A DNA stretch of 64,000 nucleotides from Escherichia coli (lineage in GTDB: Bacteria > Pseudomonadota > Gammaproteobacteria > Enterobacterales > Enterobacteriaceae): NCBI RefSeq assembly GCF_003790525.1, contig NZ_CP033632.1; one strand, given 5' to 3'. Positions 15,001 through 33,000 of the stretch are shown here, in pieces (position 1 is the stretch's first letter; each line of letters opens with the position of its first letter). Position numbers: made by a program.

Positions 15001-18000
15001 CTTATTCACTTCCTGCTCGAACGCTTCCGGAACCTGCAACTGAATAAACTCGCCCTTATCTATCAGGGAGTATTGCGATTGCTGCGTGATTGAATCATCA
15101 CTGTCGTCGTCTTCGCTGGTGGCTTGTTTAGGCAAACTGTCCGCCAGCTGCTGCACCGCATCGGCGTACTCCGGCAGGAAACGATAGGTGATCCGGCGAT
15201 AGTACAGGTCCATGTCAGTACATACGCGGTCCATATCCCTGATTATTGAGAAGATCGGACGGGCTTTCTCGTGCTCAATCACTCCGTCTTCATCGACCGA
15301 GGTCGTTACGCCATTGTTGGCTTTGGCCACCGCTTCCGCCTGCTGGCGTAATTCTTCATACGCCGCCAGTTGTTCTTCAGTAAGTGGTGCATCCTGCTGG
15401 TGTTCGTCCAGTTCCGGGATCTCCACGGTATCCTTAACGTCTTCCGCCGTTTTAAGCGTTGTCCAGCGATGGAATATGCCGCGCAGCGCATCAAGGTTTT
15501 CAAAGCCCACCAGCGCCATTTTTTCTTCAACTTCACCGCTGATTTTCTGTACCGTTTCCAGCCTGGTCTTGCCGAAGAATTTAACGAAGTCATCAGGACC
15601 GTAGATCCCCATCTTCTGCCAGTATTCCTTCGGCAGCACATGAGAAAGCATGTTGTATGCATCGATCGGGGTGTTAACGACTGGCGTTGCAGTCAGGAGA
15701 ACCGGTCCGCGCCCACCATTCTTTTTCATCAGGTACGCGTTTTTAATTGCCATATCCCGCGCCGATTGCGCCACCGCGCTGGTGGGCAGATAGGCCAGTT
15801 GTGACGCTTCGCGACCATTTTTATAGCTATTGCGGTAGTTGTGACCTTCGTCAGCGATCACACTATCGAAGCCCATATCCTCAAAGTACGGATACTTCTC
15901 TGCTTTTTCGGTACCGGTATCTGAATACTCCGACAATACCCGGCGACGCGCGGCCTCTTTGCGGTGGGAGTCGGAGTCCATTGCGCTGGCTACGCGCCCG
16001 GCGGCAACGAAGTCATAAAGCATATCCTGTGCATGCTCATCTACGGTGTCATCACGTAGCGGAGTGCGGGCGTATTGTTCTTTGGTAAACACGACTGCAC
16101 GGTAATTTGAGTGCGGGATCGCGTTCATCCGCGCCGTGATAGTGGCTTCATCTGCCAGTTTTAGGGCATCGCGCATAACTGGAGTGCCATCAGTACCAAG
16201 AACAGGAGCACCTCCCACGCTAACGCGCGGGCCCCGAATCTCACCGTTCTGAAACCACAACAAAAAAAAATCAGGAATAAAAAACACCACACAAACACAG
16301 CACTGTACCCCCCCTCATAACTGAAAAGCGCCGCCGCCCCCGCCCGAAGGGCGGGAACAACATCGCTTTTAATTATGAATGTTGTAAGTACATTGTCATC
16401 ACTGTCAGTCTTCTGGCTGGAAGTCCTCAGTACACGCTCGTAAGCGGCCCTCACGGCCCGCTAACGCGGAGATACGCCCCGACTTCGGGTAAACCCTCGT
16501 CGGGACCACTCCGACCGCGCATAAAGGCTCTGTCATGGCTGAAAACGGGTATGGCTTAGCAGGGCCGGGGGTGGGTAAGGTGAAATCTATCAGTCAGTAC
16601 CGGCTTACGCCGGGCTTCGGCGGTTTTACTCCGGTATCATATGAAACAACAGAGTGCCGCCTTCCATGCCGCTGGCGCGGCATCAGGACAATTGAAGAGT
16701 GACGGCGCACATTAACATCAAACAGACTTGTTAAGCAGTCTTTCAGGGTGTAATCTGAAGACCTGTTAAATAGTCTCAGAGGTGTGTTATGCCCAGTATC
16801 ATTTTGTCTGACACCAGTGCAAGCGTCAGTGAGCTGAAAAAAAATCCGATGGCAACTGTCAGTGCCGGAGAGGGGTATCCTGTTGCCATTCTTAACCGGA
16901 ATCAGCCAGCATTCTACTGTGTCCCTGCTGAGCTCTATGAAAGAATGCTTGATGCCTTGGATGACCAGGAGCTGGTAAAACTGGTTACTGAACGCAGCAG
17001 TCAGCCTCTGCATGATGTGGACCTGGACAGTTATTTATGACTTATACAGTAAAATTCCGGGATGATGCACTGAAAGAATGGCTCAGACTGGACAAGACCA
17101 TTCAGCAGCAGTTCGCAAAAAAACTGAAAAAATGCAGTGAAAATCCTCATATAGCTTCTGCAAAACTACGTGGATTAAAGGACTGCTATAAAATCAAACT
17201 TCGCGCATCAGGTTTTCGTCTGGTTTATCAGATTATTGATGATATGTTAATTATTGCGGTCGTCGCAGTAGGTAAACGTGAACGCAGCAACGTTTATCAT
17301 CTCGCCAGTGAACGGATGAAATAATATCCTGGTCAGCACTCTTTCTTACCTGCTTCCATTTTTTCAGTGATTCTTTTCCTGCATGCAGAAAAAAAGCCTA
17401 CCCTGTGGGCAGGCATAACAGACAATCGCACAGTCAGTGTTGAAATTAATGATGTCACGCATTATACCCGGTGGATACACAAACCATCCCTGCAAATGCA
17501 TTGGCATCCTAATCAACGTCTGAAACAACTGCAATGGCCGGACCTGTGATTTCAGAGAAAGTTATTATGTTTATTGAATATAACCGAAGTGATAAATAAA
17601 AGTATTATCACCTTTAATATTTATGCTTATTGCGTGGTTTTATCTGGTTATATAAAGCACAGATGTTCTTATTATTTTCTGAAAAATAACGGTAATGACT
17701 CCAACTTATTGATAGTGTTTTATGTTCAGATAATGCCCGATGACTTTGTCATGCAGCTCCACCGATTTTGAGAACGACAGCGACTTCCGTCCCAGCCGTG
17801 CCAGGTGCTGCCTCAGATTCAGGTTATGCCGCTCAATTCGCTGCGTATATCGCTTGCTGATTACGTGCAGCTTTCCCTTCAGGCGGGATTCATACAGCGG
17901 CCAGCCATCCGTCATCCATATCACCACGTCAAAGGGTGACAGCAGGCTCATAAGACGCCCCAGCGTCGCCATAGTGCGTTCACCGAATACGTGCGCAACA

Positions 18001-30000: not shown

Positions 30001-33000
30001 GCTGAACTCAGCCTGATGTTTTTCAATAAAGACATACTTCATTTCAGGCGCTTCGCGAAGTATGTCGCGGCCTTTTGGAGGATAGCCAGCTCTTCATCCC
30101 GTTCTGCCAGCTGGCGTTTGAGACGTGCAATCTCGGTAGACATCTCCAGTTCACGTTCAGAAGACGTCTGCTGATTTTGCTGTTTACTGCGCCAGTTGTA
30201 GAGCTGTGATTCATACAGGCTGAGTTCACGGGCTGCGGCAGTAACACCGATGCGTTCAGCAAGCTTCAGGGCTTCACTGCGAAATTCAGGCGAATGCTGT
30301 TTACGGGGTTTTTTACTGGTTGATACTGTTTTTGTCATGTGAGTCACCTCTGACTGAGAGTTTACTCACTTAGCCGCGTGTCCACTATTGCTGGGTAAGA
30401 TCAGTAGTTCCTCCTACAAAATCCTCCTACAATACATCACGTTTTTGTTAATAAATCCATGGGATTACGAGAAGTTTGGAGCGGGGGTGATTTCCCTTCG
30501 CCCGCTCCAATTTATCTTCACCTCATCGGTAATGACTCCAACTTATTGATAGTGTTTTATGTTCAGATAATGCCCGATGACTTTGTCATGCAGCTCCACC
30601 GATTTTGAGAACGACAGCGACTTCCGTCCCAGCCGTGCCAGGTGCTGCCTCAGATTCAGGTTATGCCGCTCAATTCGCTGCGTATATCGCTTGCTGATTA
30701 CGTGCAGCTTTCCCTTCAGGCGGGATTCATACAGCGGCCAGCCATCCGTCATCCATATCACCACGTCAAAGGGTGACAGCAGGCTCATAAGACGCCCCAG
30801 CGTCGCCATCGTGCGTTCACCGAATACGTGCGCAACAACCGTCTTCCGGAGCCTGTCATACGCGTAAAACAGCCAGCGCTGGCGCGATTTAGCCCCGACA
30901 TAGCCCCACTGTTCGTCCATTTCCGCGCAGACGATGACGTCACTGCCCGGCTGTATGCGCGAGGTTACCGACTGCGGCCTGAGTTTTTTAAATGGCGGAA
31001 AATCGTGTTGAGGCCAACGCCCATAATGCGGGCGGTTGCCCGGCATCCAACGCCATTCATGGCCATATCAATGATTTTCTGGTGCGTACCGGGTTGAGAA
31101 GCGGTGTAAGTGAACTGCAGTTGCCATGTTTTACGGCAGTGAGAGCAGAGATAGCGCTGATGTCCGGCGGTGCTTTTGCCGTTACGCACTACCCCGTCAG
31201 TAGCGGAGCAGGAAGGACAGCTGATGGAAATGGAAGCCACGCAAACACCTTAAAATCACCATCATACACTAAATCAGTAAGTTGGCAGCATTACCGAAGA
31301 AGTGCGCTCAGCCTTCGACAGAGACATTACCGGACTTCACAAAAGAGTATTAATGTTCAAGGGCAATAGTGCAGACGTGTTCAACATGGGTGAGATCGTG
31401 GTACAAGTCAGGCAAAGTCATCTTCTTACGAATTACTATTTTGAGATTAACCTCAATTTTACCCTTCTTAATATCCCTGATTGTTATGTTTTCAATAATG
31501 TTTTTCTGCTGATGGATGCGTGTTATCAGATTTTCGAGTGCATCGCGTTCATCAAGAATAACCCGGACTTTTACTTTTCCGGGAAACTGATCTTTAGTCT
31601 GTAAGAAAATAATGAATGGACTTAGTTTGATTGCCAATAAAAATAAAGCCGTGGAAAAAAAAGCATGAAAGTAAAAACCAGCGCCACAGGTGATTCCCAC
31701 CCCGGCAGATGCCCAGACAATTGCCGCAGTCGTGAGACCTGAAATAGCATCGTCGTGTCGGTGCAGAATGACTCCCGCACCAAGAAAACCAACACCACTG
31801 ATAATCTGAGCCGCTAGGCGCATAGGATCGCTACGGATATTCATCGAAATTTCAGCATAGTATTCAGCAGATTGTATTGATACAACAGTTAACACACAGC
31901 TGGCTACAGATAAAATAACGCAAGTTTTGAAGCCGACTGGTTTCCCTTTCGATTCTCTTTCCAATCCTATAATACCACCCAGAATAAATGAAATGCTGAT
32001 TTTGATGATCGTAGTTAAAGGCAACAATCCTTGCTCATTGATGATGGCGGCCAGATTATTCATGCAATTACCTTAATGAAAAAAGTCTTTAACGATTAGT
32101 AGTGCGTTTTTTTCAATGGGAGATCTGCTTTGCGTTTTGAAATATCGTCCCGGAAGAATATCAGGAAGAATACGCTGACCACTGCGGCAACGCCTGCTGA
32201 AACCAGCCAAAATGTTTCCCATTGCGGTAACGCTTGTGGGCCTTGTTCCGTCACAGTGTTGTTAAATATTTGCCCGCATACGGTAGAGGCAAATAGCAAA
32301 CCGACGCCGTTCGAGACGATGAATCGTAAACTTTGGGCTTGCGCTTTAATCTCTGGCGCGGCTTTACGGTCAACATAAATGTCGCCCACGGTAAAGAAAA
32401 AGTCCCAGCAAAATCCCTGCAACATCAGACCGATCAGCACAAACATCATGTTGGCATCCAGTGATGCATGAGCAAACAACAGGGTGCGGATGATCCAGCA
32501 TACGGCACCCAACATGAGAGTAATTTTGAAGCCGGCTTTCAGTAAGAAAAACGAGAGCAGGAACATAAAAATGACTTCACAGGCTATGCCGACCTGCATC
32601 ATTGACGCGGCGTTCTCGAATCCAAGCGCTTTTAAAAAGACTGGGATATAAGCGGAATAAGCTGTTTTAGGGATCATCAGGACAAAAATGCTGAGCATCA
32701 AAACCGAGAAACTACGGTCCTTGAAGAGTGCCAGAGCGTCCAGACATAACAGATCGCGGAGTGTAAATACGCTACCTTTTGCTTTCGGTGGTGTGTGTGG
32801 TAATGTAAAGCAGTAAAGGCCAAGCACGACACCGGAGGCTGATGCTATATACCAGGTGATGGTATTTCCGGAATAGCCCATTTCACCAATAATAAAACCG
32901 ATGACCATAAAGCCAAATGTGCCGAACACACGAATAAAGGGGAAATATTTCACCCCGTTAATGTGGCTGAAACTGATACTGTTAGCCAGCGCAGTTGTTG

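Follow-up and report, generated by a model that had tools for sequence, protein, structure and literature searches.

We examined a stretch of 64,000 nucleotides (hereafter the window) from the Escherichia coli contig NZ_CP033632.1 (assembly GCF_003790525.1), which carries three copies of the insertion sequence (IS) IS1. Comparison of their flanks with related plasmids argues that each copy marks a breakpoint: one end of the element would have stayed fixed, the DNA beyond the other end would have been lost or exchanged, and none of the three would occupy a pristine insertion site. We put the probability of this reading at about 0.85. IS1 is a classic source of adjacent deletions as well as of 9-bp target duplications, and the route followed here would be either adjacent deletion, that is, intramolecular transposition, or recombination between IS1 copies.

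The three elements are located at 17691..18458 (copy 1), 26133..26900 (copy 2) and 30528..31295 (copy 3). In agreement with the initial annotation, they are exact 768-bp elements in the same orientation, and the IS1 end sequence occurs at only these three sites in the whole window, as against zero expected by chance. On the plus strand each element runs from its right inverted repeat (IRR) to its left inverted repeat (IRL), hence insA and insB are encoded on the minus strand. The terminal inverted repeats are imperfect (GGTGATGCTGCCAACTTACTGAT / GGTAATGACTCCAACTTATTGAT); both ends are present in all three copies, with a single G-to-A change in the IRL of copy 3. InsA has 91 amino acids in every copy and carries the Pfam domains Zn_ribbon_InsA and HTH_Tnp_IS1 (PF03811, PF12759). 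An A6C slippery (frameshift) motif is found at IS1 position 307 in all three, with insB' in the -1 frame. The open insB reading frame extends over 174 codons and covers the full DDE_Tnp_IS1 profile (PF03400, positions 1-131, E = 5.9e-78). In length and inverted repeats, in the insA-A6C-insB' arrangement and in the DDE domain, all three copies are members of the IS1 family; they are intact and probably active. The InsB variants are those reported initially, HDFTSLKK in copy 1 and HDFPPFKK in copies 2 and 3. Copy 1 is inserted between relE and an autotransporter gene; the junctions of copy 2 fall within mobH on the IRR side and within a serine recombinase gene on the IRL side; copy 3 begins 18 bp past a repeat of a tRNA-Gly 3' end and ends 54 bp from an mgtC-like gene.

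None of the copies is flanked by a 9-bp target duplication. The 9-mers to the left and right are AAAAATAAC/GATAAAAGG for copy 1, GAGATAAAC/TGTTGTCTG for copy 2 and CACCTCATC/GAAGAAGTG for copy 3, and no flank of one copy matches that of another. The earlier claim that matching 9-bp flanks are missing thus survived a re-examination of the exact termini, and a tolerant scan of the flanks for repeats of 7-14 bp at offsets of 0-3 found nothing either. When the six 9-mers were matched among themselves and against those of the additional IS1 copies in the related plasmid pMTY9754, no partner for an inversion or a reciprocal recombination emerged. The lack of duplications is specific to IS1, because other insertion sequences of the region retain their direct repeats: IS3 (GTAG), ISKpn26 (CTAA) and IS421 (GGAGAGATCC). 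Neither of the two marks of a simple insertion, a 9-bp duplication and flanks that are contiguous in IS-free relatives, was found for any of the three copies.

The relatives used for comparison form a large group of roughly 80-170-kb plasmids from E. coli, with some members from Shigella, Salmonella, E. fergusonii and E. albertii. They are typed as IncHI1B in PLSDB/MOB-suite, many of them as non-mobilizable, and our literature search turned up no specific description of this family. We refer to the left (IRR-side) and right (IRL-side) junctions of the three copies as L1/R1, L2/R2 and L3/R3. Genome-level junction counts were made over 5,426 complete E. coli genomes.

The left junction of copy 3, L3 (...CACCTCATC|IS1), is present in 57 of these genomes, nearly always on plasmids of this family, and the IRL side of the element is found in three states. 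In pPSJ-32-1_1 and S30 plasmid C the flank starts with ggtagaaaaaatcg... (ggtagaaaa...); in pEF7-18-51_1 it starts 56 bp further on, at a point that we call X (tgatttttcac...); in the window, pMTY9754 and pS163-2.4 it starts a further 4,958 bp on, at gaagaagtg.... Point X, which was found in 80 records, also adjoins the single, L2-anchored IS1 of pF404-1 and p1-H9, and the IS1-free sequence upstream of X is kept in p2017.18.02CC_1. The 4,958 bp absent from the window correspond to positions 22492-27449 of L001, our retrieved locus of pF404-1, and contain an IS3-family remnant, a group II intron and a VENN-domain gene. In relatives they separate IS1 from the flank that begins with an MgtC/SapB-family gene (31350..32063, minus strand; Pfam MgtC), the first gene to the right of copy 3 in the window. 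By alignment, the IRL side of copy 3 thus shows a series of nested deletions that share one fixed IS end, and the window has the largest loss. For IS150, deletions that stay anchored at the element and enlarge step by step, with no duplication, were documented in the long-term evolution experiment; in general, the lack of target duplications is put down to adjacent deletions or to recombination of one IS copy with another (PMC11708052).

A separate rearrangement touches the same region. The window's IS421 (39555..40893) carries a 10-bp direct repeat. That IS421 end is found without a repeat in some 20 relatives besides RHB45-C09 and pSCLS1, where it adjoins position 93 of the 124-bp stretch to the left of copy 3 (in window 30404-30496); this indicates that those plasmids underwent a deletion of about 9 kb comprising the mgtC-MFS-MBL-solute-binding block.

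At copy 1 the missing DNA can be delimited to the base. Plasmid pF404-1 is IS1-free at this site and carries the left flank up to exactly 17690 and the right flank from exactly 18459, with 317 bp between them (locus L001 7422-7738). Both flanks are held by 173 plasmid records; among the best 60 listed, 56 have the IS1-free spacing of 1,517 bp and four have IS1. An IS1 is also present at this site in pS163-2.4, for which the match is split by the start of the record. Because 56 of the 60 best-listed relatives hold the 317-bp filler without IS1, the filler represents the ancestral state, which was replaced by copy 1. By our own reading of its translation, the filler may contain the C-terminal remnant of an IS256-like transposase. 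The left flank (ending at 17690) closes with a relE/parE toxin gene (17037..17324, plus strand), so annotated in relatives. On the right begins segment A (18459-26132), the first gene of which encodes an autotransporter of 1171 amino acids (18635..22150, minus strand; Pfam Autotransporter, AC_1, PATR and Pertactin), followed by ISKpn26 of the IS5 family (22528..23723, plus strand), a simple insertion with its CTAA duplication, and by mobI (24721..25206, plus strand; Pfam MobI, E = 1.4e-20). Segment A is joined to the left flank in IS1-free relatives and is therefore not foreign.

Copy 2 truncates genes on both sides, as had been noticed from the sequence at the outset. To its left lies a remnant of the mobH relaxase gene (25877..26132, plus strand) consisting of the first 85 codons, which are identical to the N-terminus of the p2017.18.02CC_1 allele; that allele extends to at least 543 amino acids. 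To its right lies a serine recombinase remnant (26901..27211, plus strand) that retains residues 85-186 and matches positions 91-145 of the 145 in the Pfam Resolvase profile. Chromosomal homologues of the recombinase have 186 residues, and the catalytic serine is lost because residues 1-84 are missing. The L2 site is uninterrupted in many relatives, in which the flank continues into the MobH-family relaxase gene. The L2 junction itself (mobH codon 85 | IS1) is common to pF404-1, p1-H9, RHB45-C09, pEF7-18-51_1, pSCLS1, pS163-2.4, pMTY9754 and the window, and among its carriers three different sequences are found on the IRL side of the IS1: R2 (tgttgtctg...), X (tgatttttc...) and cgccttcg.... 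A fixed L2 with exchanged partners is the pattern expected if one IS end served as an anchor and the DNA on the other side was repeatedly exchanged or deleted. No intact recombinase gene was found at the R2 site in the plasmid family; the search returned only 86%-identical alleles at other loci and chromosomal alleles of 82-85% identity. One chromosomal allele has, at the R2-equivalent position (locus L019 1280-1300, compared with window 26880-26900), the sequence AAGTTGGCAG, with the same 10 bases that lie near the IRL end of IS1. This match may be due to chance or to the reported preference of IS1 for end-like targets.

Several plasmids allow the events to be placed in a tentative order. In pEF7-18-51_1, copy 2 has L2/R2, segment B (the DNA between copies 2 and 3) is present, copy 3 has L3/X, and the 317-bp filler is still in place; this plasmid looks like the precursor of two derived forms. 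The junctions of copy 2 would have arisen through loss of all the DNA that lay between mobH and the recombinase gene, and segment B, with copy 3 at its edge, would have come from a chromosomal tRNA-Gly island. The first derived form would be that of pF404-1 and p1-H9, with a single IS1 bounded by L2 and X, the product that should be left if copies 2 and 3 recombined and segment B was removed; the single IS1 of pF404-1 equals the L3 copy of pEF7-18-51_1 at all variable sites. The second would be the window lineage, in which copy 3 underwent the 4,958-bp deletion, copy 1 replaced the filler, and IS3 and ISKpn26 were inserted.

The comparison of flanks with related plasmids, proposed in the initial annotation as a way to reconstruct ancestral junctions, thus bears out rearrangement, through the 317 bp at copy 1, the nested series at copy 3 and the three partners at copy 2. 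The annotation had favored IS1-mediated cointegration or deletion over simple insertion. L3 stays the same while its element has three nested endpoints, L2 stays the same across three partners, and relatives carry the DNA that is missing; at the level of sequence comparison, we regard deletion as demonstrated by the relatives' flanks and cointegration as not demonstrated. The outer 9-mers of no IS1 pair match as those of a cointegrate would; segment B, however, is probably of chromosomal origin, with IS1 at its edge.

Five points weigh against this reading or narrow it. Adjacent deletion by the transposase and RecA-mediated recombination yield identical products, so sequence alone cannot part them. 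An intact mobH-to-recombinase interval was found in no relative, and a within-molecule deletion at copy 2 is something that we infer; as for an uninterrupted interval from mobH to segment B, p2017.18.02CC_1, pPSJ-32-1_1 and S30 plasmid C are each broken by other IS1 copies that likewise have no duplication. No intermediate turned up for copy 1, for example an element flanked by a duplication within or next to the 317 bp, and the IS1-bearing form is known in a single state, that with the 317 bp missing. There is one T/G mismatch 3 bp inside the right flank of copy 1. Finally, the record counts of 173, 80 and 57 rest on records that were only partly inspected one by one.

The internal sequences of the IS1 copies were compared as well. 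Copies 1 and 2 differ at 9 nucleotides, copies 1 and 3 at 18, and copies 2 and 3 at 19; copy 3 stands apart by a block of 12 differences within its final ~90 bp, next to the IRL. Copy 1 of the window and copy 1 of pMTY9754 differ at 10 sites, with flanks that are ~99.9% identical, and copies 1 and 2 of pMTY9754 differ from each other at 2 sites: copies on the same plasmid tend to be alike. At orthologous IS1 loci with identical junctions, the internal alleles differ mosaically between plasmids (the window and our retrieved loci L001-L003 and L006-L009). This suggests that gene conversion or recombination among IS1 copies lies behind the mosaic alleles.

The origin of segment B, and of the pair of IS1 copies around it, is the point on which an alternative comes closest. 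Beyond the recombinase remnant, segment B contains a gene for a YecR-family lipoprotein (27505..27846, plus strand; Pfam YecR), a gene for a DUF6998 protein of 292 amino acids (28245..29123, plus strand; Pfam DUF6998), and a 1258-bp IS3 (29146..30403, minus strand), which is a simple insertion with its GTAG duplication and an empty site in relatives. It ends with an 18-bp copy of a tRNA-Gly 3' end (30492..30509, plus strand), resembling the attR end of an island, and 18 bp of chromosomal-type flank up to copy 3. According to the alternative, copies 2 and 3 and segment B arrived together from the tRNA-Gly island, either in the form of a composite transposon or by way of a cointegrate formed by IS1, and were inserted near mobH; outward adjacent deletions from both outer ends later erased the duplication. 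It agrees with the reading given above for all later steps, differing only on the origin of the pair formed by copies 2 and 3, and we consider it unlikely, if worth weighing in detail.

Window positions 27901-30522 align at 98-99% identity with the right-hand end of islands inserted at the chromosomal tRNA-Gly gene (glyU) beside ETT2. This alignment spans the 18-bp tRNA repeat and the 18 bp of chromosomal flank and stops exactly at copy 3, as arrival of a unit ending in IS1 would have it. Additionally, E. coli ECONIH5 carries an IS1 whose insertion point, to the base, and orientation are those of copy 3, with a perfect CACCTCATC duplication, and PapM-32-1 has the empty site; L3 is the sole junction of the six with a known duplication-bearing counterpart. 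However, 44 of the 768 positions differ between copy 3 and its ECONIH5 counterpart, which leaves room for an independent insertion at a preferred site. As a test, by internal sequence, of the descent of copy 3 from the ECONIH5 IS1, these 44 differences speak neither for nor against it, since gene conversion among IS1 copies is evident. Against arrival of the whole unit from a chromosome, the recombinase allele and the yecR stretch have chromosomal counterparts that are only 82-85% identical or none at all, and an IS1 at the R2 site was found in no chromosome. It is conceivable, with the odds somewhat against it, that copy 3 was originally a simple IS1 insertion in a chromosome, located 18 bp downstream of the tRNA-Gly (glyU) gene or island end, and reached the plasmid together with that end.

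The initial annotation had suggested that copies 2 and 3 could mobilise the segment between them as a composite transposon. The bracketing structure is there, since two intact IS1 copies in the same orientation enclose a 3.6-kb passenger. The duplication and a second location, in contrast, are missing: no 9-bp repeat surrounds the whole unit (GAGATAAAC vs GAAGAAGTG), and the unit was not found in a second genomic context. Full-length segment B, up to the IS3 insertion site, is present in no more than 5 plasmid records and 4 E. coli genomes, each time at this locus and in this plasmid family. About 20 relatives keep the greater part of segment B with another IS1, inserted at 27248-27256, as its boundary. 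In sequence terms the 3.6-kb unit gives no sign of having moved as a unit, and a composite transposon would be a structural possibility only. The other outer flanks known for copy 3, ggtagaaaa and tgatttttc, do not supply the duplication expected from a joint arrival either. Two further observations favor such an arrival: R2 and L3, the inner junctions, show no variation in any of their occurrences, and it is the outer IRL flank of copy 3 that varies. In sister plasmids, however, the left boundary of the module is a different, inverted IS1.

Smaller pieces bounded by IS1 have moved, which speaks for the alternative. A sister unit of 1,892 bp, consisting of the R2 junction of copy 2, 356 bp identical to window 26901-27256 and a second IS1, is present at one site in five IncHI2 plasmids from Salmonella, Klebsiella and E. 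coli (NZ_MT513102.1, NZ_CP142404.1, NZ_CP089134.1, NZ_CP155556.1 and NZ_CP071694.1). There it is flanked by a perfect 9-bp TTCAATATC duplication, and the empty target site is intact in 988 IncHI2-type records; this smaller unit, which shares copy 2, did transpose. In the chromosome of E. coli JNQH497, between yciX and cysB (locus L021 9346-12663), we found a module of the form IS1(inverted)-HTH-DUF6998-tRNA repeat-IS1(L3), the inner junctions of which are those of pPSJ-32-1_1 and S30 plasmid C; the strain also holds a plasmid of this family. This insertion tells against the alternative in another respect, as no target duplication was found around the module and 163 bp present in most E. coli genomes are replaced. 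Somewhat less probable than its negation is the wider picture in which copy 3, from the glyU site, carried the island end to the plasmid and IS1-bounded pieces are still moving among the plasmid family, IncHI2 multidrug-resistance plasmids and chromosomes, the IS1 pair being a working shuttle and not just a scar.

Three ordinary simple insertions, with duplications that were mutated away or had an atypical length, are a very improbable account of the three copies. The IS1 flanks are AT-rich, like preferred IS1 targets, and IS1 occasionally makes duplications of other lengths, in the range of 8-14 bp. However, the flanks are 99.8-100% identical to those of relatives, hence there was no decay; the repeat scan, which allowed for other lengths and offsets, was empty; and in relatives the flanks are not adjacent, those of copy 1 being 317 bp apart and those of copy 3 at least 4,958 bp apart.

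The arrangement of the three copies is shared with other plasmids. Window 9479-52028 is colinear with pMTY9754_IncHI1B (NZ_CP128941.1, from Japan; AP026489.1 is another accession of equal length) at 99.86-99.89% identity, the three IS1 copies included. All six IS1 junctions are the same in pS163-2.4 (NZ_CP058713.1, from a pangolin in China). Since the one plasmid is colinear and the other has the same six junctions, the three-copy layout was inherited and did not arise in this replicon; by this comparison it is best explained by descent from an ancestor common to the window, pMTY9754_IncHI1B and pS163-2.4. That the junctions are assembly artefacts from collapsed or mis-joined IS1 repeats can be ruled out for all practical purposes: 768-bp repeats are well known to cause mis-joins when short reads are assembled, but the layout is present in independent public records, with the same six junctions in complete plasmids of two independent sources, at least those of copy 1 and R2 in MB15 from poultry (NZ_CP073986.1), and L2, L3 and R2 singly in many more.

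The plasmids also differ in detail. The 524 bp beside ISKpn26 (window 23727-24250) are absent from pMTY9754 and pS163-2.4, in a manner that looks like an IS-adjacent deletion; because both lack DNA that the window has, the window is not a descendant of either. Conversely, 58 bp that are kept in pF404-1, pS163-2.4 and pMTY9754 are missing from the window at 25579/25580. This loss splits a 241-amino-acid gene between mobI and mobH into two open reading frames (25319-25621 and 25591-25866). Sequence outside window 9479-52028 differs from pMTY9754 and pS163-2.4, and the window's own replicon has no full match among the 5,426 complete E. coli genomes.

The layout was already present in public plasmids, and the processes considered here belong to standard, already known IS1 biology with no new mechanism. 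Their consequences for the plasmid lineage are nevertheless concrete. The IS1 copies offer an explanation for the missing functional MobH relaxase, and the deletion at copy 2, if it took place as we infer, would help explain why the lineage is typed as non-mobilizable. The junctions L1/R1, L2/R2 and L3/R3, together with the 1,892-bp unit, provide exact markers for ordering events in the plasmid family. The 1,892-bp IS1-356 bp-IS1 unit is, in addition, a clean natural case of IS1 composite transposition, and records past contact between this family and the IncHI2 resistance-plasmid lineage.

The remainder of the window lies outside the IS1 region. A resistance region occupies positions 1-9290, a block that is absent from pMTY9754 at that position. 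It contains aadA1 (954-1799, minus strand), a class 1 integron integrase gene (2468-3586, plus strand), aph(6)-Id (3558-4403), aph(3'')-Ib (4394-5197) and sul2 (5258-6073), the last three on the minus strand, and an IS6-family (IS26-like) transposase gene (7988-8710, minus strand) that abuts a truncated methyl-accepting chemotaxis gene (8751-9290). Toward the right end, genes for RepB, a GIY-YIG protein and ParAB (46542-50947) are directly followed by an IS91-family transposase gene (52196-53395). Beyond these lie P1-like phage-plasmid genes, among them tRNA-Asn and tRNA-Thr genes (55712-55865), a third tRNA gene (57670-57745) and a dnaB/ban-like helicase gene (58026-59396). The best matches to the right end of the window (46542-64000) are P1-like phage-plasmids of roughly 95-100 kb, for example pCRECTL20-3, with the same RepB protein. 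Because of these matches, the replicon looks like a hybrid in which the IncHI1B-typed family is joined to P1-like phage-plasmid DNA.

Among known systems, the reorganisation of resistance plasmids driven by IS26 is similar in that multiple copies of one IS family without duplications mark deletions, inversions and exchanges of modules from one replicon to another (PMC4471558). It differs in the IS family and transposase involved: IS26 forms cointegrates only and also uses a conservative targeted route, whereas IS1 produces both simple insertions and cointegrates.

IS1 composite transposons of the Tn9 type resemble copies 2 and 3, which are intact direct repeats around 3.6 kb, and also the sister unit of 1,892 bp with its TTCAATATC duplication in IncHI2 plasmids. 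Unlike a Tn9-type element, the 3.6-kb unit is not flanked by a duplication; the passenger in its full length is confined to one locus of one plasmid family. The passenger, made up of a recombinase remnant, yecR, the DUF6998 gene and IS3, is also without a selectable gene.

A further likeness is to the adjacent deletions known for IS1 from the classic gal-region and plasmid cases. In the present study such deletions are deduced from natural plasmid variants and not from a pedigree, and recombination between two IS1 copies is possible for any single event. The features in common are a fixed IS end, varied or nested endpoints, the absence of a duplication and the retention of the IS, and they recur at copy 3 with its three endpoints, at copy 1 with its 317 bp, and at copy 2 with its common L2 junction.

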